Positions 51,127 to 64,000 of a stretch of 64,000 bases of DNA are shown here, in pieces. A program made the position numbers and the translations under genes. The stretch comes from Clostridiales bacterium (GTDB taxonomy: Bacteria; Bacillota; Clostridia; Lachnospirales; Lachnospiraceae): positions 4,851-68,850 of the forward strand of contig JAJPZY010000135.1 in the NCBI GenBank assembly GCA_021204085.1, in the 5' to 3' direction. The notes under the pieces are model-generated. The model ran no database searches, was not told where the DNA came from, and saw only the letters and a program-made list of their open reading frames with translations. Position 1 is the first letter of the stretch. Every line of letters starts with the position of its first letter.

Positions 51127-51720
51127 ATGAAAAAAGAAAGAATTGTTGCCATAAACAGGACGACCGCCGAGACGGATATCGCGCTGACCCTGAATCTGGA
51201 TGGAAGCGGCGAGCGGAAGATTTCGACGGGCGTGGGGTTTTTTAATCATATGCTGGCAGGATTTGCCCGTCATGGTTTTTTTGACCTGGATGTGAAGGTG
51301 AAGGGCGACCTGGAGGTGGATTGTCATCATACGATTGAAGATACCGGCATTGTTCTCGGCACGGCAATTCGGGAGGCGGTCGGAGATAAAAAAGGAATTC
51401 GACGCTATGGGAGCATGATTCTTCCGATGGATGAGTCGCTGGTGCTTTGTGCGGTAGATCTGTGCGGACGCCCGTATTTTGTTATGGATGCAGAATTTCC
51501 TACGGAGCGGGTGGGAGATATGGACACGGAGATGGTTCGCGAGTTTTTTTACGCGATTTCCTATACCGCAGGGATGAATCTTCACCTGAAGGTTTTGTCC
51601 GGTTTTAACAGTCATCACATGATTGAGGCGATGTTCAAGGCCTTCGGGAAGGCTTTGGACGAGGCAACGTCTTATGACCCGCGTATCGCGGATGTATTAT
51701 CGACGAAAGGCAGTTTGTAA
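51127..51720 (+). CDS. hisB: Imidazoleglycerol-phosphate dehydratase
   Basis: [24 protein letters not shown] and STKGSL. Confidence 0.96.
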
Positions 51721-51721
51721 G

Positions 51722-53011
51722 ATGAACTACAGACAAAAGGATATTATCGTAACAGTATTTTTGAAATACGGTATGCTGGTGAAAGGGTTTTCGGATTATA
51801 CGCCTGCCGGCAGTACGGAGGAAACGATTCGTTCTTTTAATAACAGCGGCATCGACAAGATTTTTCTTTTTGATCTGTCGGATGGTGAGCGGGAGCATGA
51901 GCAGAATCTTGTTACTTTGAAAAAAATTACACAGTTTTCCGAACTTCCGGTCTGTGCGGGCGGTAATATCAATAATATTAACGACATTAAGAAGGTCCTT
52001 TATGCCGGATGTAATAAGGTTATTCTGAATTCATTGAAGAAACAGACGGAAGACCTGGCTGCAGAGGGGGCACGGCGTTTCGGAAAAGACCGCATGGCGT
52101 TGTCTGTTTTCAGTGCGGATGTTTTTTATAAAAAACGGGCAGCGATGCAGGAGTATATCAGTGAGGTTGTTGTCCTGGATCCGAAGCTGGCGGGTACGAT
52201 GCGCGATGTTACAGATATGCCGTATTCTGTATTGATCGATGATGTTTCGAATGAAAAAATCGCTGATATTCTAAAGCGGGATGAGAATATTAAAGGGATT
52301 TCCTGCAGTTTGTTTTCGGCAAATCCCTCCGGGGTGCCTGAACTGAAAACATATCTGAAAGAGCAGGGAATCGGAATAGATCATCTGACATCTACAAGGA
52401 AGTGGTCGTCTTTTAAGTTAAATGCAGACGGCCTGATTCCCGTGGTTGTTCAGGATTACCAGAATAATGAAGTGCTGATGCTCGCCTATATGAATGAGGA
52501 GGCATATGAGAAAACGCTTGAGACGGGGCGGATGACTTACTATAGCCGCAGCCGTCAGGAACTCTGGGTCAAGGGGCTGACGTCAGGCCATTTCCAGTAT
52601 GTCAAGTCGCTGGAGATCGACTGCGACAGCGATACGATTCTTGCGAAAGTATCACAGATTGGCGCCGCCTGCCACACTGGAAACCGGAGCTGCTTTTATA
52701 CAAACCTGGCAGAGGATGAGTATCAGCCGCGTAATATGCATGGTGCGTTGACAAAAACTTATGAAAACATCCGGGAAAGAAAACTGTATCCGAAGGAAGG
52801 CTCTTACACGTCATACCTTTTTGAAAACGGAATTGATACCATATTAAAGAAAATCGGAAAAGAGGCTACGGAGCTGATTATCGCTTCAAAGAATCCCGGA
52901 AAAGAGGGCAGCCGCTACCAGATGGCGGATTTGCTTTATTACGCAATGGTTTTGATGGTAGAAAAAGAAATCTCCATCGAAGATGTCCTGGAAGAAATGA
53001 TGATGCGCTAG
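51722..53011 (+). CDS. hisIE: Fusion of a degenerate HisA/HisF-like barrel, HisI cyclohydrolase and a HisE-like domain
   Basis: N-terminal [15 protein letters not shown]; [22 protein letters not shown] and [10 protein letters not shown]; EGSYTSYLF. Confidence 0.88.
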
Positions 53012-55208: not shown

Positions 55209-56477
55209 ATGACCAAGCCTACTTTTGTCACGAAGGAACAGATTGAAGAGATTGTAAAGACATACCCGACACCGTTTCATCTGTATGATGAGCGGGGCAT
55301 TCGTGAGAATGCGCGTGCAGTTCAGGAAGCCTTTTCGTGGAATCCGGGATTCCGTGAATATTTTGCAGTAAAGGTGACACCGAATCCGTTTTTACTTAAG
55401 ATTTTAAAAGAGTACGGATGCGGTACGGACTGCTCTTCCATGACGGAGCTCATGATGTCGGATGCGGTTGGTTTTTCGGGCGAGGAGATCATGTTTTCGT
55501 CAAATGATACGCCGCCGGAGGAGTTTATTTATGCCAATGAGATTGGTGCGACGATCAATCTGGATGATTTTACCCATATCGCATATCTGGAGAATCTGAT
55601 CGGAGAATTTCCGAAAACAATGAGCCTCCGTTATAATCCGGGCGGAGTTTATACATTGAGCAACGGTATTATGGACAACCCGGGCGATGCAAAGTACGGT
55701 TTTACGAAAGAGCAGATTATCGAAGGATATCGTATTCTGAAGGAGAAGGGTGTCGAGCGCTTCGGCCTTCACGCATTTCTGGTGAGCAACACGGTGACGA
55801 ATGATTACTATCCGACGCTTGCGAAAACACTTTTTGAACTTTGCGTGGAGATTCGGGAGAAGACAGGCGTGCAAATGGACTTTATTAATCTTTCCGGCGG
55901 CGTGGGGATCGCTTATCGCCCGGAGGAGACTCCGAATGACATCCGGGCCATCGGCGCAGGTGTGGAAAAGGTGTACAATGAGGTTCTGGTTCCTGCGGGA
56001 ATGGGCGATGTGGATATTTACACAGAGATGGGACGGTTTATGATGGGACCTTACGGCTGTGTGGTAACACAGGCTATTCATGAGAAACATACCTATAAGG
56101 AATATATCGGAGTGGACGCCTGTGCGGCAAATCTGATGCGTCCGGCAATCTACGGCGCTTACCATCATATTACTGTTGCGGGGAAGGAAGAAGCGCCCTG
56201 TGACCATAAGTATGACGTTGTTGGTTCTCTCTGCGAGAACTGTGACAAATTTGCCATTGACCGGATGCTGCCAAAGATTGATATGGGTGATTACCTGATT
56301 ATCCATGACTCCGGTGCGCACGGTTTCTCCATGGGGTATAATTATAACGGGCGGCTTCGTTCCGCGGAGCTTCTTTTGAAGGAGGACGGCAGCGTACAGC
56401 TGATCCGACGGGCGGAGACACCAAAAGATTACTTTGCGACCTTTGACTGCTTCGATATTATCCGGGAGCTGGTGTAA
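55209..56477 (+). CDS. lysA: Diaminopimelate decarboxylase
   Basis: YFAVK (PLP Lys), INLSGG, EMGR, GSLCE and MGYNYN. Confidence 0.9.
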   Translation: MTKPTFVTKEQIEEIVKTYPTPFHLYDERGIRENARAVQEAFSWNPGFREYFAVKVTPNPFLLKILKEYGCGTDCSSMTELMMSDAVGFSGEEIMFSSNDTPPEEFIYANEIGATINLDDFTHIAYLENLIGEFPKTMSLRYNPGGVYTLSNGIMDNPGDAKYGFTKEQIIEGYRILKEKGVERFGLHAFLVSNTVTNDYYPTLAKTLFELCVEIREKTGVQMDFINLSGGVGIAYRPEETPNDIRAIGAGVEKVYNEVLVPAGMGDVDIYTEMGRFMMGPYGCVVTQAIHEKHTYKEYIGVDACAANLMRPAIYGAYHHITVAGKEEAPCDHKYDVVGSLCENCDKFAIDRMLPKIDMGDYLIIHDSGAHGFSMGYNYNGRLRSAELLLKEDGSVQLIRRAETPKDYFATFDCFDIIRELV

Positions 56478-56492
56478 TATTGGAAATATTGT

Positions 56493-56638
56493 TGTAACTA
56501 TTCAGAACCAGGCTCGAAAATGCTGCACATTTCCTCGCTGTCGCGTTCTCGCCAGATAAATTTGTACTTAAAACAGCTTACGGATGCAAGCATCCGACAC
56601 TGTTTTTCGACAAATTTGCCTGGTTCTGAATAATTACA
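56493..56638. mobile_element. MITE-like element with 21-bp terminal inverted repeats and a 6-7-bp flanking direct repeat
   Basis: tgtaactattcagaaccaggc / gcctggttctgaataattaca (20/21 match); TATTGT at 56487-56492 and 56639-56644; nested internal hairpins. Confidence 0.7.
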
Positions 56639-56660
56639 TATTGTATAAAAACGTGAGCCA

Positions 56661-56706
56661 AGGAAGGCTGATTGCAAATTTTGTGTCAATCAGTCTTTCC
56701 TTTTTT
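56661..56706 (+). terminator. Intrinsic terminator of lysA
   Basis: aggaaggctgattg...caatcagtctttcct followed by a T run. Confidence 0.7.
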
Positions 56707-56792
56707 GTAAATTACTGATATGATACTACGGTGAAGCGTTCGTAACATGTGGCGCATGGTTTCGGGAGATTAAATATTTATAAGGAGACAGT

Positions 56793-58322
56793 ATGGCAGA
56801 GCTTGTACTGGAAATGAGGGGGATCACAAAGACATTTGGTTCGGTGGTCGCCAACAAAGATGTGAATCTGAAGTTGTACGCCGGCGAGATTCACGCATTA
56901 TTGGGAGAAAATGGTGCCGGTAAGAGTACGTTGATGAATGTGCTTACCGGCATTTACAAACCGGATGGGGGAGAGATTTATTATAAGGGGAAAAAAGCAG
57001 TGATTCGCTCGCCGCGCCAGTCGGTTGCCATGGGCATCGGTATGGTGCACCAGCATTTTCGCCTGATTCCCACGCTGACGGTGGCGGAGAATGTGGCGCT
57101 TTATTCAGAAGAGCGGAATTTTTTCTTACATACGGCGAAGATGGAAGAGGAGATTGCGGAGTGTTCCCGTCAGTTTCAGATGGAAGTTGACCCGCATGCA
57201 AAGGTCTGGCAGCTTTCCGTTGGAGAACAGCAGAGGGTGGAGATTGTTAAGCTTCTTTACAGGGGCGCGGAGGTCCTGATTCTGGATGAGCCATCCGCGG
57301 TGCTGACTCCTCAGGAAGCCGATAAAATGTTTGTCACGCTGCGGCGGATGGCGGAGCAGGGCAAGACGGTTATCGTGATTTCGCATAAAATGAACGAGGT
57401 AATGAAAAATGCGGACCGCATAACGGTGTTAAAAGGCGGAATGGTGGAGGACACCATGGAGGCAAAGGACGCCACTTTGGAGCGTCTGACCCATGCCGTG
57501 GTCGGCGACCGGGAATATGTCGAGCATGTGCACAGACAGCGGGAGCTTAGCAGCAGAAGCGTGCTCAGGCTGAATGATGTAACGGTGAAGAACGATAAAG
57601 GGCTTCCCGCGGTACAGGATGTAACGCTGGACATTCGGGAAGGTGAGATTTTCGGTATCGCGGGTGTTGCAGGCAACGGACAGAGAGAGCTGGCGGAACT
57701 GATCGCCGGACTGCGGCCGACAACAGGCGGAACTGTCTGTCTGGGGGACCGGGATGTCACAAAGGCATCCATACGGGAACGAATTCGGGCGGGCATTTCC
57801 TTCATCCCGGAGGACCGTCTTCACACCGGTCTGGTTCCGGGTATGAACTTAAAGGAAAATATTATACTGAAGGAATTTGACACGGAGAAATACAGCAAAA
57901 GGGGAATTATCCGTTCGAAAGCCGTGGAAAGCGCTGCAGATCGCTTTACTGACATATATGATATAAAACATGGCGGAAAGGAGCTGCCGGTCGGACTCAT
58001 GAGCGGCGGCAACCAGCAGAAGCTTCTGGTCGGACGTGAGGTAGACGGACGGCCGAAGCTGATCGTGGCCTCTTATCCGGTCCGCGGTCTTGATATCGGC
58101 GCAGCAGAGGCTATCCGCCAGATTCTCATGGAGGAGAGCCGGCAGGGGACAGCGGTTCTTCTGATTTCCGAGGAGCTGGATGAGATTTTCCGTATGTGCG
58201 ACCGTGTCGGCGTACTTTGCGGCGGCATTTTGATGGGAATTCGCTCCGTAGATGAAACGAATTACAATGAGATCGGGTTGATGATGTCCGGCGAAAGAGT
58301 GGAGGTGGTTTCTCATGCGTAA
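56793..58322 (+). CDS. ABC transporter ATP-binding protein (two-domain, CUT2/nucleoside type)
   Basis: GENGAGKST, LSVGEQQRVEI, ILDEP and SGGNQQK. Confidence 0.93.
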   Translation: MAELVLEMRGITKTFGSVVANKDVNLKLYAGEIHALLGENGAGKSTLMNVLTGIYKPDGGEIYYKGKKAVIRSPRQSVAMGIGMVHQHFRLIPTLTVAENVALYSEERNFFLHTAKMEEEIAECSRQFQMEVDPHAKVWQLSVGEQQRVEIVKLLYRGAEVLILDEPSAVLTPQEADKMFVTLRRMAEQGKTVIVISHKMNEVMKNADRITVLKGGMVEDTMEAKDATLERLTHAVVGDREYVEHVHRQRELSSRSVLRLNDVTVKNDKGLPAVQDVTLDIREGEIFGIAGVAGNGQRELAELIAGLRPTTGGTVCLGDRDVTKASIRERIRAGISFIPEDRLHTGLVPGMNLKENIILKEFDTEKYSKRGIIRSKAVESAADRFTDIYDIKHGGKELPVGLMSGGNQQKLLVGREVDGRPKLIVASYPVRGLDIGAAEAIRQILMEESRQGTAVLLISEELDEIFRMCDRVGVLCGGILMGIRSVDETNYNEIGLMMSGERVEVVSHA

Positions 58323-59439
58323 TTTGCGTGTACAGAAAAGAACCGATCTGACGCCGGTAAAGAGGCTGATCAATGTTGTGATTTTTGTGCTGCTTGCACT
58401 GGTGTTCTGTGCGTTTTTTGTGGCCTATAACGGAAACAATCCCCTTGAGGTCTATGCAAAAATGTTGAAGACGATTGTCTCCGTGAAAGGTCTGCAGAAA
58501 AGTATTGTCGCAGGGTTGCCGTTGATTTTTACAGGCCTGGCAGTGGCTTTCGGATATCGGATGAATCTGAACAATATTGGAGCGGACGGACAGTATGCAT
58601 TTGGCGCGATTTTCTGTATCTGGTTTGCGCTTTACGGACCGGATATGCCGGCAGTGCCGAAGATTATTCTCATGTTTGTTTTCGCGTGCGCGGGCGGAGC
58701 CTTTGTCGCGCTGCTGGCTGCGATTCCCAAAGCACTCTGGGATGTGAATGAGACGATTATGACAATGATGTTAAATTACGTGGCGCTGTATGTTTTAAAT
58801 TATCTGACCTACGGTCCATGGAAAGAATCCGGTCAGATGGTTGCGCAGACTGCGGAGATTTCCGAGCGGTATTATCTGCCGGATATCGGAAATACGGGGA
58901 TTAATTCGATTCTGCTGATTGCCATAGCGATTGCAGTTGTCCTGTATTTTTTCCATTCGAAAACGACAAAGGGTTTTGAGATGGAGGTAGTCCGCAAAAG
59001 CCCGGGAGCGGCAAGATATGCCGGTATTCATGTAAAGAAAAATATTATCCTGGTGCTTGCTGTAAGCGGTGCGATCGCCGGCCTGGCCGGCTTTGCCCAG
59101 GTGGGCGGCATCATCCACCGGGTGCAGGCGGATATGCCGAATGGTGCCGGTTACACCGGCATCGTTATCGCTTACCTGGCGGGATTAAATCCGTTGGTTG
59201 TGGTGATTGTCGGCATCCTTTTCGGTGCATTGCAGATCAGTGCTGTTGCCGTGCAGGTTTCCGGAGTTCCCTCTCAGATCGCGACGATGATTCAGGGCAG
59301 TATTATGCTGTTTGTGATCGCGGGAGACTTTTTTACCAGATATAAAATCGTTCGGACGAAACCGGATCAGGCCAATGGCTCGGACATCTCCCGGGGAAAT
59401 GAATCGGACATCACACAGAAGGGAGGCGCAGAGGTATGA
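58315..59439 (+). CDS. ABC transporter permease 1 (BMP/nucleoside type)
   Basis: NIGADGQ, NETIMTMMLNY, SGAIAGLAG and GYTGI. Confidence 0.9.
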   Translation: MRNLRVQKRTDLTPVKRLINVVIFVLLALVFCAFFVAYNGNNPLEVYAKMLKTIVSVKGLQKSIVAGLPLIFTGLAVAFGYRMNLNNIGADGQYAFGAIFCIWFALYGPDMPAVPKIILMFVFACAGGAFVALLAAIPKALWDVNETIMTMMLNYVALYVLNYLTYGPWKESGQMVAQTAEISERYYLPDIGNTGINSILLIAIAIAVVLYFFHSKTTKGFEMEVVRKSPGAARYAGIHVKKNIILVLAVSGAIAGLAGFAQVGGIIHRVQADMPNGAGYTGIVIAYLAGLNPLVVVIVGILFGALQISAVAVQVSGVPSQIATMIQGSIMLFVIAGDFFTRYKIVRTKPDQANGSDISRGNESDITQKGGAEV

Positions 59440-60368
59440 CGACAGCATTGCTGGTATCTATTATTTCGACGGCGATTGTATATGCGGTTTCCGTTCTTTA
59501 TGCCGCGGTCGGTGAGATTTTCTCCCAGCGGGCCGGTGTGATGAATCTGGGTCTCGAGGGAATTATGCTGATGGGTGCGGTTTCCGGTTATCTGGTGGCG
59601 GTACACCGACAGAACCTGGCGTTGTCCATGCTTGCCGTTATTGCGGTAGGTGCGATTCTCGGGCTGGTTTTTGCGTTTGTGACAGTAACGCTTCAGGCAG
59701 ATCAGACGGTTGCAGGCATGGCCATGCTTACCTTCGGCACGGGTTTAAGCGGTTTTATCGGAAAGGAAGTCAGCGGCGTCAACGCGAATTTAAAGTTTGA
59801 GTCTTTTGATCTTCCGCTTTTATCAAAAATCCCGGTGATCGGCCAGAGTTTTTTCCACCAGGATATTCTGGTGTATGCCATGTATATCATTTTGCCCCTG
59901 TCCATGATTTACATTTATAAGACGAGGCCGGGGATGATTCTCCGCTCTCTTGGCGAGAACCCCGCAACATTGGACAGCGTAGGGTACAATGTGTTCGCAC
60001 TGCGATATGCATATGTTGTATTCGGCTGTATTATGACGTCGGTTAGCGGCGCATGTGTTTCGCTCTCTTACACAAACTTCTGGAGTGACGGAATGACAAG
60101 CGGAAAGGGATGGATTGCCGTGGCGCTGGTGGTGTTCGCCTCATGGAACCCTCTTGTGGCAGTGTTCGGCGCATTGCTGTTCGGCGCAGTCAGTATTATC
60201 GGGGTGGATATTCAGATGTATTTTACCGCGATTCCGTCCCAGTTTTTCTCGGCGCTTCCTTATGTAGCGACGATTATTGCGCTGATTTTCACTACGGGAA
60301 ATTTCCGGAAAAAGAGGTCGGCGGCGCCTGCCGCGCTTTGTATTCCCTATGACCGGGAGGAGCGATAG
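59436..60368 (+). CDS. ABC transporter permease 2 (BMP/nucleoside type)
   Basis: RAGVMNLGLEG, GENP, GKGWIAVALV and LPY. Confidence 0.9.
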   Translation: MTTALLVSIISTAIVYAVSVLYAAVGEIFSQRAGVMNLGLEGIMLMGAVSGYLVAVHRQNLALSMLAVIAVGAILGLVFAFVTVTLQADQTVAGMAMLTFGTGLSGFIGKEVSGVNANLKFESFDLPLLSKIPVIGQSFFHQDILVYAMYIILPLSMIYIYKTRPGMILRSLGENPATLDSVGYNVFALRYAYVVFGCIMTSVSGACVSLSYTNFWSDGMTSGKGWIAVALVVFASWNPLVAVFGALLFGAVSIIGVDIQMYFTAIPSQFFSALPYVATIIALIFTTGNFRKKRSAAPAALCIPYDREER

Positions 60369-60580: not shown

Positions 60581-61807
60581 ATGAAAAAGAAAGTACTCAG
60601 TGTGTTGCTCATCGGAGCAATGGCGGCAACCCTGATGGCGGGCTGCGGCAGCACGGCAAGTGACAGCAGTGATGCAGATGGTTCTGCAGCGGCGGAGACG
60701 AGCGAAACTGCGGACGACGCGGCAGACGCGGCGGAGGATTCTGATACGGTCAACCTGATCTCGCAGGATCTTCTGGGAAGCGACCCGGAGGATGGTGCAG
60801 ATCTTTCCGGTATGATGATCGGTGAGATCGAATCTTACGTAATCAATGACGGCGGCTGGTGCCAGGCGACGCATGAAGGTATTGTTGCGGCGATGGAAGA
60901 GCTGGGAATTCCGGAGGATAACCTGATCGTTCTGGAGGAGATTGATGATACGGATCAGGCAACGGTGCAGGCAGCAGCGGAGCAGCTGATTGAAGAGGGA
61001 TGTACACTGATCATCGGTGCTTCTACCGGTTATGCTTCTTTCCTGCCGGAGATTGCGGCTGAGAATCCGGATGTTACCTTTGCACAGTGGGGCAATAAAG
61101 TAGACGGGCTGATCGGTTATGAAATCCGAAGCTATGAGGGCATGTTCCTGGCGGGTTACGCCTGCGAGCTGCTGAGCCAGGATGAGAATACACAGCTTGG
61201 TTATTCTGCTTCTTATGATGAGTTTTCCGTCCGTACAGCGATCAATGCGTATGCGCTCGGCGCAAAGTATGCGAACGAGGAAGCAACTGTAAAAGTTGCC
61301 TGCGCGAATTCCTGGTATGATATCGACGTGGAGACTCAGTGTGCACAGTCACTGATTGACGCCGGCATTAAATATATGGGCATGGAGGCTTCCTCCCCGG
61401 CAATTCCTGAGACCTGCGAGGAAAACGGCGTATATGTGGTTGGTTATCACAATGATATGTCTTATCTGGCTGAGGATGCGGTTCTGGTTTCCTTTACCTG
61501 GAATTTCGCTCCGATCTTTAAACAGATTATGATTTCCGTAAATGACGGTACGGCAACCGCAAATGACTTCTATTACTGGGGCGGCGAGTGCTCGAAGCTG
61601 ACAGATTTTGCTTCCTTTGTACCGGAGGATGTTGTCACGGCAGTGGAAGAGCTGAGCGCACAGATTGAGAGCGGAGAGGTTCAGGTATACGGCGGCGAAC
61701 TCAAAGACAGAGACGGAAATGTTCTGGTGGAAGAGGGCGAAGTGATGTCTGATGACGATATCATCCTCCAGGAGTTCTTTGTAGAGAACGTAGACTGCGC
61801 ATGGTAA
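60581..61807 (+). CDS. BMP-family ABC substrate-binding lipoprotein
   Basis: Lipobox LMAGC (Cys22), acidic linker, NDGGW and INAYALGAK..N. Confidence 0.88.
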   Translation: MKKKVLSVLLIGAMAATLMAGCGSTASDSSDADGSAAAETSETADDAADAAEDSDTVNLISQDLLGSDPEDGADLSGMMIGEIESYVINDGGWCQATHEGIVAAMEELGIPEDNLIVLEEIDDTDQATVQAAAEQLIEEGCTLIIGASTGYASFLPEIAAENPDVTFAQWGNKVDGLIGYEIRSYEGMFLAGYACELLSQDENTQLGYSASYDEFSVRTAINAYALGAKYANEEATVKVACANSWYDIDVETQCAQSLIDAGIKYMGMEASSPAIPETCEENGVYVVGYHNDMSYLAEDAVLVSFTWNFAPIFKQIMISVNDGTATANDFYYWGGECSKLTDFASFVPEDVVTAVEELSAQIESGEVQVYGGELKDRDGNVLVEEGEVMSDDDIILQEFFVENVDCAW

Positions 61808-61904: not shown

Positions 61905-63281
61905 ATGGACGCAAAAAGATATCTGGATCTTGTCGAGAGGAGCAACACCGGAGAGAAAGTCGGCAAAAATGATTGGGATATGGATTATATCATTGATAAC
62001 GTCATGGAACTGGTGGACGATTACGATTTTTCCTGGGATAAGCAGGTGCTGATCCCTGAGGATGACAAGCTGCTGGATGATATGATGGAGGCGGCAAAGA
62101 AGCTTCTTTTAAATACCGGCATTTATAATATGTCTACCGGGCGGATTATTGCCTTTTCCGAAGACGAAATCGATGAAGGAATCCGGAATATGAAAACGGA
62201 GCTGGTCATGGGCGAGGGTAAGGATGCGTATACGCTGGCTGCCCGCGGTATCGAGGATCGCAGGCCGCCGGCTGTCTGGGCCGGTAATCCCGGCTGTCCG
62301 ACACCGGAGCGGCTGTATCTGCCGATTATTCAGAGTGTAGCGAAGGAACCTGTGGTCGACCTGCTTACCTGCGGCTCTCTTGTAGATGTGGACGGTTATC
62401 GTGTAAAAAGCGGTGATGTAACTGAGCTTCTGGCTGTTCGCAGAGAGATGAAGTATCTGCATCAGGCACTTGAGGAAGTCGGACGCCCCGGCATGGGGCT
62501 TCTGGCTGCGGAGAGTGCGGTCACAGAGATGGGCGATCTGGCTGCGGTCGGGCAGCAATGGCTTCGGCCCTGCGATTCACATCTGGTGGCGCTGTTTAAT
62601 GAACTGATCATAGATAACGGGAACCTGGTTCGAGCGGCCAGTTCACTGGACTATGGAATGAAAAACGCTTCTCTGGCCTGCACGATGGTCGGCGGTCTGG
62701 GCGGAGACGCGCCCGGAAGCTGTATAATTATGATTGCTTCCATTTTCGCCGCGAATCTGATTGCGCTGGCAGATTATCACCTCTGCCATCCCATTCATAT
62801 CAAAGATGTGGCGACTACGGCGCGGGGATGCCTCTGGCTTCAGTCTGTTCTTTGCCAGACTTTTGCGAAAAACGCGCCGGCAATCATAGTCTGTGATCTC
62901 TGGCCGTCCAGCGGCAGCCTTACCAAAGAGCTGCTCTATGAGGTGGCGGCTAATACGATTGTTGTGACTGTTTCCGGCGGACATCTGGAAGGACTGGGAT
63001 CTGCAAACGGAAATGCTCCGAATGGTACCGGGCTGGAGGTTCGTCTCATGGGAGAGGTTGGAAAGGCAGTCGCCCGACAGGGGATGACAAGGTCTGAAGC
63101 GAATGCCATTGTCTTACAGCTGGTCGAAAAGTATGAGCATATCTTTCAGATGGAAGACGGCAACAAAGGAGAGCCGTTCGATGTGTCTTATAATATGGAG
63201 ACCATTGAGCCTGTTCCGGAGTGGCAGCAGATGTACGATGAAGTCAAAGAAGAACTGACACAGATGGGTATTCGATTTTGA
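61905..63281 (+). CDS. Monomethylamine:corrinoid methyltransferase (MtmB)-family protein without pyrrolysine
   Basis: 458 aa; TGEKV..DWD, DRRPP, GRPGMG, LFNELIID, TGLEVRLMGEV and GEPFDVSYNMETIEP; CTG (Leu200) where MtmB has the amber/Pyl codon. Confidence 0.85.
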   Translation: MDAKRYLDLVERSNTGEKVGKNDWDMDYIIDNVMELVDDYDFSWDKQVLIPEDDKLLDDMMEAAKKLLLNTGIYNMSTGRIIAFSEDEIDEGIRNMKTELVMGEGKDAYTLAARGIEDRRPPAVWAGNPGCPTPERLYLPIIQSVAKEPVVDLLTCGSLVDVDGYRVKSGDVTELLAVRREMKYLHQALEEVGRPGMGLLAAESAVTEMGDLAAVGQQWLRPCDSHLVALFNELIIDNGNLVRAASSLDYGMKNASLACTMVGGLGGDAPGSCIIMIASIFAANLIALADYHLCHPIHIKDVATTARGCLWLQSVLCQTFAKNAPAIIVCDLWPSSGSLTKELLYEVAANTIVVTVSGGHLEGLGSANGNAPNGTGLEVRLMGEVGKAVARQGMTRSEANAIVLQLVEKYEHIFQMEDGNKGEPFDVSYNMETIEPVPEWQQMYDEVKEELTQMGIRF

Positions 63282-63428: not shown

Positions 63429-63477
63429 GGCAAAGGCGCCATGAGAGACGAGAGTTTTTCATGGTGCCTTTCTTTTT
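63429..63477 (+). promoter_or_regulatory. Leader terminator overlapped by an ANTAR-like hairpin
   Basis: GGC-AAAGGC-GCC (3-bp stem, hexaloop with A1 and G4) overlaps the 5' arm of terminator aaaggcgccatga/tcatggtgccttt-cttttt. Confidence 0.6.
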
Positions 63478-63571
63478 AGCCTCTTGTAATGTAAAAATGA
63501 GATTTTGCATTTTTGATAGTAAATGCACCGGCAGAAATAAGGAAGTTCTATCAGGAAAGGAGACACAGAAC

Positions 63572-64000
63572 ATGAGCGCATTTGAACCGATTTTATGCGG
63601 ACACCCGGGAGTAGACGAGGTCCTGGACAGCATTCGTCTGGGCGACAACGTGGTCTGGCAGGTGACGACTCTGGAGGAGTTTAAATGTTTTGCTGACCCG
63701 TTTGTAAAACAGGCAATTGCGGATGGAAGAAATCTGATCTACATGCGGTTCGGTAATCATGAGCCGCTCCTTTCACCTCAGCCGGGCTTAAAGATTTATG
63801 AGTTTGATCCGAATGAGGGATTCGAGACGTTTACCGTGAATATTCGCAGCCGAATTACGGAGGAAGGATTTGACGCGTTTTATGTCTTTGACAGCCTGTC
63901 TTCGTTACAGTCTGTCTGGTATACCGACCTGATGATGGGAAACTTTTTCCGTCTGACCTGTCCGTACCTTTTTATTCTCGACACGGTGGCTTATTTTCCG
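63572..64000 (+). CDS. Clostridial PEP/pyruvate-binding-domain (PPDK-like) protein, N-terminal part; runs off the right edge
   Basis: AAGGAG RBS; MSAFEPILCGHPGVDEVLDSIRLGDNVVWQV...SVWYTDLMMGNFFRLTCPYLF, open to the window end. Confidence 0.7.
   Translation, partial: MSAFEPILCGHPGVDEVLDSIRLGDNVVWQVTTLEEFKCFADPFVKQAIADGRNLIYMRFGNHEPLLSPQPGLKIYEFDPNEGFETFTVNIRSRITEEGFDAFYVFDSLSSLQSVWYTDLMMGNFFRLTCPYLFILDTVAYFP

Follow-up and report, generated by a model that had tools for sequence, protein, structure and literature searches.

The accepted role of pyrrolysine (Pyl) in the monomethylamine methyltransferase MtmB is to convert methylamine into an activated methylammonium adduct, and methylamine activation by this enzyme is held to require Pyl. 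MtmB homologs that lack Pyl were recognised long ago and form hundreds of sequence clusters with a single known function, that of MtqB from Methanococcoides methylutens, which acts on tetramethylammonium and choline (Kashyap et al. 2026, PMC13044021). Quaternary amines need no Pyl in MtqB, as is likewise the case in the MttB superfamily, and MtqB has a small residual activity with monomethylamine (PMC13044021). Another non-Pyl protein of the MtmB superfamily is strongly induced in a dichloromethane fermenter, where a role beyond methylamine has been suggested (Holland et al. 2022, PMC9768040). CdmB, the chloromethane protein, was considered as a further MtmB-family precedent and rejected, as it belongs to the UroD superfamily. 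Here we describe a Pyl-free MtmB-family gene that closes an importer operon in a stretch of 64,000 nucleotides (nt) from a gut or rumen Clostridiales bacterium of the family Lachnospiraceae (GenBank assembly GCA_021204085.1, contig JAJPZY010000135.1, positions 4,851 to 68,850 of the forward strand); the whole stretch is referred to below as the window. The combination of a leucine at the Pyl site with an operon for a purine-type importer suggests B12-dependent demethylation of an imported methylated adenine. In the reading that we prefer, to which we assign a probability of roughly 45%, the gene product would be the substrate-specific methyltransferase (MT1) of a corrinoid-dependent demethylation of an imported methylated purine base, with a methyladenine as the likeliest substrate and with a corrinoid protein encoded elsewhere. 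We consider it likely that, in broader terms, the protein takes part in a corrinoid-dependent transfer of methyl groups from an imported heteroaromatic compound of some kind.

The gene and the codon at its Pyl site are located as follows.

61905..63281, + strand: Pyl-free MtmB-family TIM-barrel gene, 458 amino acids (aa); supported by Pfam, PDB sequence, AlphaFold2 and tree evidence
62502..62504, + strand: CTG codon for Leu200, equivalent to Pyl202 of Methanosarcina barkeri MtmB; from the alignment and a reading of the DNA, the residue being invariant in the clade

The open reading frame (ORF) at 61905-63281 has 458 codons, is free of internal stops and is preceded by an AAGGAG ribosome-binding site 8 nt 5' of its ATG. 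The Pfam MtmB profile PF05369 matches the protein with 316 bits (cut-off 25), residues 8-456 covering positions 5-450 of the 450 in the profile, while no model was matched in the NCBIfam profile search. In a phmmer search of the PDB, the top match is M. barkeri MtmB (1L2Q, E-value 2.7e-63; 31-32% identity), and MtmB entries are the sole real matches. The AlphaFold2 model, based on an input alignment of 19 sequences (pLDDT 91.7, pTM 0.93), was compared with known structures by Foldseek and has the MtmB TIM barrel, with a template modelling (TM) score of 0.95 and a root-mean-square deviation of 1.7 Å over 455 columns to 1NTH/1L2Q; the second-best matches, MttB and MtgB, reach a TM score of about 0.5 only. 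Thirty-three positions are at least 85% conserved among 129 other representatives of the family, and 30 of these are kept in the window protein, which is therefore not a decayed copy. It is the only MtmB-family gene in the window's genome (2.93 Mb, 94.7% complete).

In the phmmer alignment, GRPGMGLLAAES faces the M. barkeri segment GRPGMGV-X-GPETS, and Pyl (X202) pairs with the second Leu; the DNA over the site reads GGA CGC CCC GGC ATG GGG CTT CTG. The clade to which the window protein belongs has the invariant pocket motif GRPGMG[LM]LAA[EQ]S. Across full-length members of the MtmB family, the Pyl column is occupied by L, G, I, V, S, C, A or T. Leu227, Leu257 and Asp331 of the window protein occupy the positions of Glu229, Glu259 and Gln333 of M. 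barkeri MtmB, residues that we take to contact the pyrroline ring or the bound amine. A conserved Lys of the family (M. barkeri K237) is replaced by Ile235 in the window lineage, and the predicted pocket is bordered by the clade-specific polar residues N128, C156, C259, C294, H295, D331, H360 and E362. Five of these (C156, C259, C294, H295 and H360) do not vary within the clade and are seldom seen in the remainder of the family; they lie at or near predicted barrel-strand ends, where they might form a metal site.

None of the hallmarks of a canonical Pyl-dependent MtmB, namely an in-frame UAG, pyl genes (as searched) and an adjoining MtmC, was found. A scan of the whole genome by aragorn yielded 43 tRNAs, none of them with a CUA anticodon. 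The PylD model (TIGR03911) had no match in the genome, with a Methanosarcina acetivorans control scoring above the cut-off; no separate search was made for pylS, pylB or pylC. The original prediction, made from the sequence letters, had described an uninterrupted 458-aa ORF resembling MtmB along its whole length, with Leu200 (CTG, 62502-62504) at the Pyl site and no pyl genes in the window. The ORF is borne out by the sequence, and the resemblance extends from end to end of the Pfam profile as well as to the fold; both the profile search and the structure comparison, which had been proposed as checks, place the protein in the MtmB family. The position of Leu200 proved exact both in the alignment and in the DNA, and the window yielded no pyl genes, nor was a tRNA-Pyl or PylD found anywhere in the genome.

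Hundreds of relatives with 75-95% identity are found in metagenome-assembled genomes (MAGs) and isolates of Lachnospiraceae/Eubacterium, the isolates including Robinsoniella peoriensis, Lactonifactor longoviformis, Bilifractor porci and Lachnospiraceae ZAX-1. The named relatives carry the database label "monomethylamine:corrinoid methyltransferase", which is almost certainly wrong because the protein has no Pyl and the genome no pyl genes. The MtmB family as a whole comprises 824 clusters (E-value at most 1e-3) in a library of 1.84 billion representatives, and the window clade shares a single 50% cluster with its Chloroflexi members (55-57% identity). We built a FastTree phylogeny of 140 full-length representatives and M. 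barkeri MtmB, MtqB being compared by its published description. The window clade has 100% local support in this tree, and its closest sisters are 35-39% identical. It lies far from the branch of the Pyl MtmBs, both from M. barkeri MtmB and from the closest non-Pyl neighbours of that protein. The distribution is patchy, as only 5 of the 201 sampled genera of the same family carry the clade; the sequence is nonetheless strongly conserved. In another genus of the family, an MtmB homolog with 32% identity and a single in-frame TAG directly follows a corrinoid-protein gene (G071:C7:33563-35529), and this pair looks like a genuine Pyl-type MtmC-MtmB in a Lachnospiraceae-family genome.

The MtmB homolog is the last of five genes on one strand, preceded by an ATP-binding cassette (ABC) ATPase, two permeases and a Bmp lipoprotein. 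The other features of the operon are listed below.

56607..56634, + strand: promoter-like site TCGACA-16-AATAAT; consensus scan 10/12, a pattern match only, about 160 nt before the first operon gene
56793..58322, + strand: ABC ATPase with two fused ATP-binding domains, 509 aa; Pfam ABC_tran matched twice
58315..59439, + strand: ABC permease 1, 374 aa; Pfam BPD_transp_2, 8-nt overlap with the ATPase gene, synteny conserved
59436..60368, + strand: ABC permease 2, 310 aa; Pfam BPD_transp_2, 4-nt overlap with permease 1
60581..61807, + strand: Bmp/PnrA-family substrate-binding lipoprotein, 408 aa, with lipobox LMAGC; Pfam Bmp, signal and lipobox seen in the translation
63432..63481, + strand: intrinsic-terminator-like hairpin of 18 pairs with a T-rich tail; 150 nt past the stop of the MtmB homolog, at the operon end

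A gap of 97 nt separates the binding-protein gene from the MtmB homolog. The ATPase gene is kept upstream of MtmB homologs in most importer-carrying loci, and permease 2 is 65-84% identical across syntenic loci. The best NCBIfam model for the ATPase is "putative B6 ABC transporter ATP-binding protein", with a score of 473 bits that lies below the cut-off of 670. A riboswitch search gave no Rfam match at the gathering threshold in the whole window, and a single chance-level match to a small RNA within 56400-56850. Contigs from sequencing runs that cover the operon come from related strains (90-99% identity) and show no transcript boundaries, the runs not being identifiable as RNA. The importer context is what the original prediction missed: its family placement and the Leu-for-Pyl replacement stand, and the gene ends a Bmp-type ABC importer operon. 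Its proposal that the protein is the MtmB-fold counterpart of the non-Pyl MttB proteins, with a different methyl donor, is reasonable in kind but not new (PMC9768040, PMC13044021).

The genes downstream (a protein without a family, a PPDK_N protein, a 2-oxoacid:ferredoxin oxidoreductase and pyruvate carboxylase) were weighed as possible members of the operon and dismissed because a strong terminator intervenes and because they are not conserved beside the homologs. The first of them, at 63560-64000 of the window, encodes a protein of about 175 aa that has no family match and starts MSAFEPILCGH. The second, at G000:C77:68986-71004 (G000 being the window's genome and C77 the contig that holds the window), encodes a 672-aa PPDK_N protein (phosphoenolpyruvate (PEP)-utilising, ATP-grasp) without the remainder of PEP synthase. 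This pair is followed by the subunits of the 2-oxoacid:ferredoxin oxidoreductase and by the pyruvate carboxylase.

The best PDB relatives of the binding protein are 3S99 from Brucella (E-value 5e-32) and AtzT from Pseudomonas sp. ADP (6PI5, E-value 5e-29). Adenine was modelled in the site of 3S99, whereas the ligands of AtzT are guanine and 2-hydroxyatrazine; the dissociation constant of AtzT is 110 nM for guanine and 2.5 µM for adenine, and thymine, cytosine and uracil bind weakly, with constants of at least 620 µM (Dennis et al. 2019, PMC6834077). When the AtzT site is mapped onto the window protein, the stacking pair and a serine are kept (Tyr45 to Trp93, Trp194 to Trp245, Ser97 to Ser148), whereas the polar contacts are altered (Glu165 to Ser216, Asn218 to Glu269, Asn220 to Ser271). 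The site fits a flat, purine-like ligand, which would be neither plain adenine nor plain guanine because the polar contacts are not those of the proteins that bind adenine or guanine. The "putative B6" NCBIfam model gives the binding protein 60 bits against a cut-off of 400.

To characterize gene neighbourhoods of the homologs, ORFs were called in 34 genome loci, their 440 products were clustered without labels, and recurrent clusters were named afterwards. A Bmp binding-protein gene adjoins the MtmB homolog in 21 of the 34 loci. The full set of ATPase, two permeases and binding protein is present in 17 of these 21, and in the rest it is cut at a contig end or the binding-protein gene stands alone; in locus L026 the importer lies downstream of the MtmB homolog. 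Adenine deaminase (Ade) is adjoining or close in 10 of the 34 loci. Its identity is supported by the equivalog model TIGR01178 (594 bits, cut-off 472.5) and by the Pfam domain Adenine_deam_C. At least five gene orders were found:

Ade (-), MtmB homolog, membrane protein: four Robinsoniella-type loci
MtmB homolog, membrane protein, Ade: L025, L028 and L033
Ade, ABC genes, substrate-binding protein, MtmB homolog: L027
ABC genes, substrate-binding protein, Ade, MtmB homolog: L032
MtmB homolog, ABC genes, substrate-binding protein, Ade: L026

Repeated rearrangement with retention of the linkage argues for a functional coupling between Ade and the MtmB homolog. The membrane protein in these lists, denoted c5, is a 517-aa multi-pass protein that follows the MtmB homolog in 7 loci without a Bmp-type importer. 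Other importers in the same position are a symporter of the SNF family (L003 and L004) and an energy-coupling factor (ECF) system with a PF09819 S-component (L036). Such interchangeable importers beside a constant enzyme indicate that the substrate is imported. In the sister clade, the locus L045 (homolog P0125, 39% identity) has the order c5-like protein, adenine deaminase, corrinoid protein, URO-D, MtmB homolog and PocR/AraC regulator, and its membrane protein is 58% identical to c5. The homolog P0128 is followed by a DUF1638 gene.

Proteins of the c5 type (517-529 aa) were seen at L017:11444-12997, in six further loci and at L045:2494-4083, with a weak, non-significant likeness to the signature region of NCS2/AzgA. 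The protein had no Pfam or NCBIfam match and no PDB match by profile, and its AlphaFold2 model has a pLDDT of 40. Comparison by hhalign with the AzgA-type purine permease of the genome gave a probability of 1.8%, so that kinship with purine permeases is not supported. We regard c5 as a candidate for a new transporter family for the same substrate. At three loci (L011, L013 and L014), a gene for a NUDIX hydrolase (213-252 aa, with a CoA-pyrophosphatase-like motif) stands between the binding-protein gene and the MtmB homolog.

No corrinoid protein was found in the window or in the remainder of its contig. For this reason we infer corrinoid dependence from the orthologs: in Chloroflexi, the orthologs at L030 and L036 (55-57% identity) directly follow a protein with B12-binding and B12-binding_2 domains, and at L036 a complete Pfam RACo activase lies beside the ortholog. 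In the window's genome, B12-binding domains occur in three proteins, namely MetH, a 566-aa protein and one stand-alone corrinoid protein of 212 aa on another contig, C146. The surroundings of the latter contain five URO-D-family genes, cobalamin-synthesis genes and a 556-aa homolog of the L036 RACo (tblastn E-value 1e-41). The same cluster (C146:8000-31000) also holds LysR/AraC-type regulators, and it is probably an O-demethylase-type system. The genome holds the parts of a three-component system (a two-domain corrinoid protein, genes for the second methyltransferase, MT2, of the URO-D family, and a RACo homolog), which would pair with the MtmB homolog, and C146 is a likely source of its corrinoid protein. 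A stand-alone corrinoid protein is present in all 5 clade carriers and in about one quarter of the genomes among the matches listed (201 sampled genera). At least 11 sampled genomes that have no MtmB homolog likewise carry an ortholog of the C146 protein, which is therefore not dedicated to the MtmB homolog.

These observations lead us to propose the following course of events. The lipoprotein, given its operon and its kinship with purine binders, would catch a methylated base outside the cell, and the ABC permeases and ATPase would import it. The MtmB-fold barrel would hold the base in the Pyl pocket, rendered hydrophobic by Leu200, Leu227 and Leu257 and bordered by the clade-specific polar residues, and offer its N-methyl group to the Co(I) of a corrinoid protein, which would attack it. 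By established chemistry, Pyl would be dispensable here, since a ring-N-methylated or protonated purine should already be an activated N-methyl donor; candidates for such pre-activated donors are a ring-N-methylated adeninium (1- or 3-methyladenine) and N1-protonated N6-methyladenine. The C146 corrinoid protein would take up the methyl group, a URO-D-type MT2 would hand it on, and RACo would re-reduce oxidised cobalt. The adenine product would go to salvage or, in relatives with a neighbouring Ade, would be converted to hypoxanthine.

Several points weigh against this proposal. The polar contacts of the binding protein differ from those of its relatives, so the ligand could be another flat aromatic compound, and the closest NCBIfam models of the transporter are "putative B6", though all scores are below the cut-offs. 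Searches of the window's genome for an adenine deaminase of the TIGR01178 type and for c5 found neither, and only 10 of the 34 loci have Ade. Corrinoid protein, MT2 and activase are absent from the window operon and from every Lachnospiraceae-type locus, and the C146 corrinoid protein primarily serves another system, considering its orthologs in at least 11 genomes without an MtmB homolog. The part played by Glu229 and Glu259 of MtmB is our own assumption, for which a search of the open literature gave no support. Operon and function alike are read from genes and models. For corrinoid-dependent purine demethylation, no precedent emerged from the literature searched: queries that paired MtmB or corrinoid methyltransferases with methyladenine, adenine deaminase or caffeine gave no relevant paper, and in this literature the purine link of the window clade is likewise unpublished.

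Some of these points would be accommodated by a corrinoid methyltransferase for a different imported flat heterocycle or nucleoside carrying an N-, O- or S-methyl group. We consider such a substrate unlikely, yet it is the best of the alternatives to methyladenine. The candidates include 7-methylguanine, methylxanthines (theobromine, caffeine), N6-methyladenosine and a vitamin precursor resembling pyridoxine or hydroxymethylpyrimidine. Bmp-family proteins also bind nucleosides and other ligands, which together with the changed polar contacts would permit a wider choice of substrate, and the "putative B6" models would point to a vitamin precursor, but the binding protein scores far under the cut-off of that model (60 against 400 bits). 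The ECF system with its PF09819 S-component, found at L036 instead of a Bmp system, is in keeping with a different heterocycle, as is the lack of adenine deaminase in 24 of the 34 loci and in the window's genome. On the other hand, adenine deaminase is the sole catabolic enzyme that recurs by the clade, and it recurs by the sister clade as well. At the locus L034, three MtmB paralogs are accompanied by subunits of xanthine dehydrogenase and by amidohydrolases akin to guanine deaminase, which would suit other purines, but these paralogs are just 28-31% identical and belong to other branches of the tree.

L034 deserves a description of its own. It lies in an Anaerolineales MAG (CAZOUN010000001.1), where the three paralogs, each on a different tree branch, are found within L034:168-21353. 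The locus also contains two corrinoid proteins, a URO-D methyltransferase, a Bmp-type ABC importer, two amidohydrolases of the guanine-deaminase/TRZ-ATZ-like kind and two sets of xanthine-dehydrogenase-type subunits (for flavin adenine dinucleotide, 2Fe-2S and molybdenum cofactor). As a whole, the locus resembles a pathway that acts on a purine or triazine with several methyl groups.

The absence of corrinoid protein, MT2 and activase from all Lachnospiraceae-type operons, where the gene travels with importers only, raises the question whether the protein is a methyltransferase in this lineage at all. The barrel might instead have taken on a role that needs no corrinoid, such as that of a hydrolase, an isomerase or a sequestering protein for an imported purine-like compound, with the clade-specific Cys and His residues available for a metal site and the family Lys (K237) replaced by Ile235. 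This is a doubtful explanation, as orthologs with 55-57% identity and the same pocket motif directly follow a corrinoid protein and have RACo nearby, the sister-clade homolog follows a corrinoid protein and URO-D, and all 5 carriers possess a stand-alone corrinoid protein. In addition, 30 of 33 family-conserved positions are kept, and we know of no member of the MtmB family with corrinoid-independent activity.

A methyltransferase for choline or tetramethylammonium would have the advantage of precedent, as MtqB is a non-Pyl MtmB-family protein of proven activity (PMC13044021) and gut and rumen are rich in choline. Such a function is nevertheless highly improbable for the window protein, since the linked importer is of the Bmp/purine type and not of the betaine/choline type, no MtqC-like corrinoid protein adjoins the gene, and choline offers no rationale for the linkage with adenine deaminase. 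Furthermore, MtqB, compared here by its description in the paper, branches near the Pyl MtmBs, whereas in our tree the window clade is remote from M. barkeri MtmB. The idea that the substrate is still monomethylamine, handled without Pyl and perhaps freed from N6-methyladenine by the neighbouring deaminase-family enzyme as some amidohydrolases do, has in its favour the database label and the residual activity of MtqB mentioned above, but it is hardly credible when Pyl is held essential for methylamine activation in MtmB, both Glu residues of the Pyl pocket are Leu in the window protein, a dedicated importer for flat aromatic compounds makes little sense for methylamine, and the neighbouring enzyme passes the equivalog model for adenine deaminase.

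Apart from the operon and its surroundings, the window contains at 51623-53011 (+ strand) a 462-aa ORF with a partial His_biosynth domain (HisA/HisF-type) together with PRA-CH and PRA-PH domains, possibly a HisF/HisIE fusion or an ORF with a mis-set start.

Should demethylation of an imported methyladenine be confirmed, a purine base would be a new chemical class for corrinoid-dependent methyl transfer, beyond the simple and quaternary amines. We offer the still more tentative suggestion that the clade represents the first corrinoid-dependent demethylase of methylated nucleobases, by which bacteria of the gut and rumen would, without oxygen, import N6-, 1- or 3-methyladenine set free by the turnover of DNA and RNA, transfer its methyl group to a B12 protein, and salvage or deaminate the resulting adenine. 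A purine substrate would also account for the ability of strict anaerobes to recycle methylated bases, which are abundant in gut contents and for which the known demethylases need oxygen, and it would provide a testable handle on how Pyl is replaced in the pocket. The purine hypothesis is directly testable because culturable carriers exist (R. peoriensis, L. longoviformis and B. porci).

Comparisons with the known systems place the window locus among them as follows. With 3S99 and AtzT, the window binding protein shares the aromatic sandwich and the equivalent of Ser97, and it differs from them in three changed polar contacts, an extended acidic linker at the N-terminus and a lipoprotein anchor of the Gram-positive type. 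The MtmB homolog agrees with M. barkeri MtmB in family, fold, 458-aa length and the GRPGMG motif preceding the Pyl site. In contrast to the M. barkeri protein, it has Leu200 in place of the UAG-encoded Pyl202, Leu227 and Leu257 for Glu229 and Glu259, and Asp331 for Gln333; its gene is bacterial, comes without pyl genes or an adjoining MtmC, and is the last of an ABC importer operon.

The likeness to MtqB, compared by description, is that both are non-Pyl members of the MtmB family, MtqB being a precedent for corrinoid methylation from an activated N-methyl donor. The MtqB gene has MtqC as its neighbour in a methanogen, and the protein groups close to the Pyl MtmBs; the window clade, by contrast, has links to purine-type importers and to adenine deaminase, and no corrinoid protein adjoins the window gene. 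The non-Pyl members of the MttB superfamily (MtgB, MtcB, MtpB and MtyB) resemble the system proposed for the window in that loss of Pyl is paired with a switch of methyl donor, in the three-component architecture (MT1, corrinoid protein and MT2, with an activase) and in their occurrence in gut Firmicutes. They belong, unlike the window protein, to a distant TIM-barrel family (Foldseek TM score of about 0.5, 10% identity), and their substrates are quaternary amines supplied by other types of transporter.

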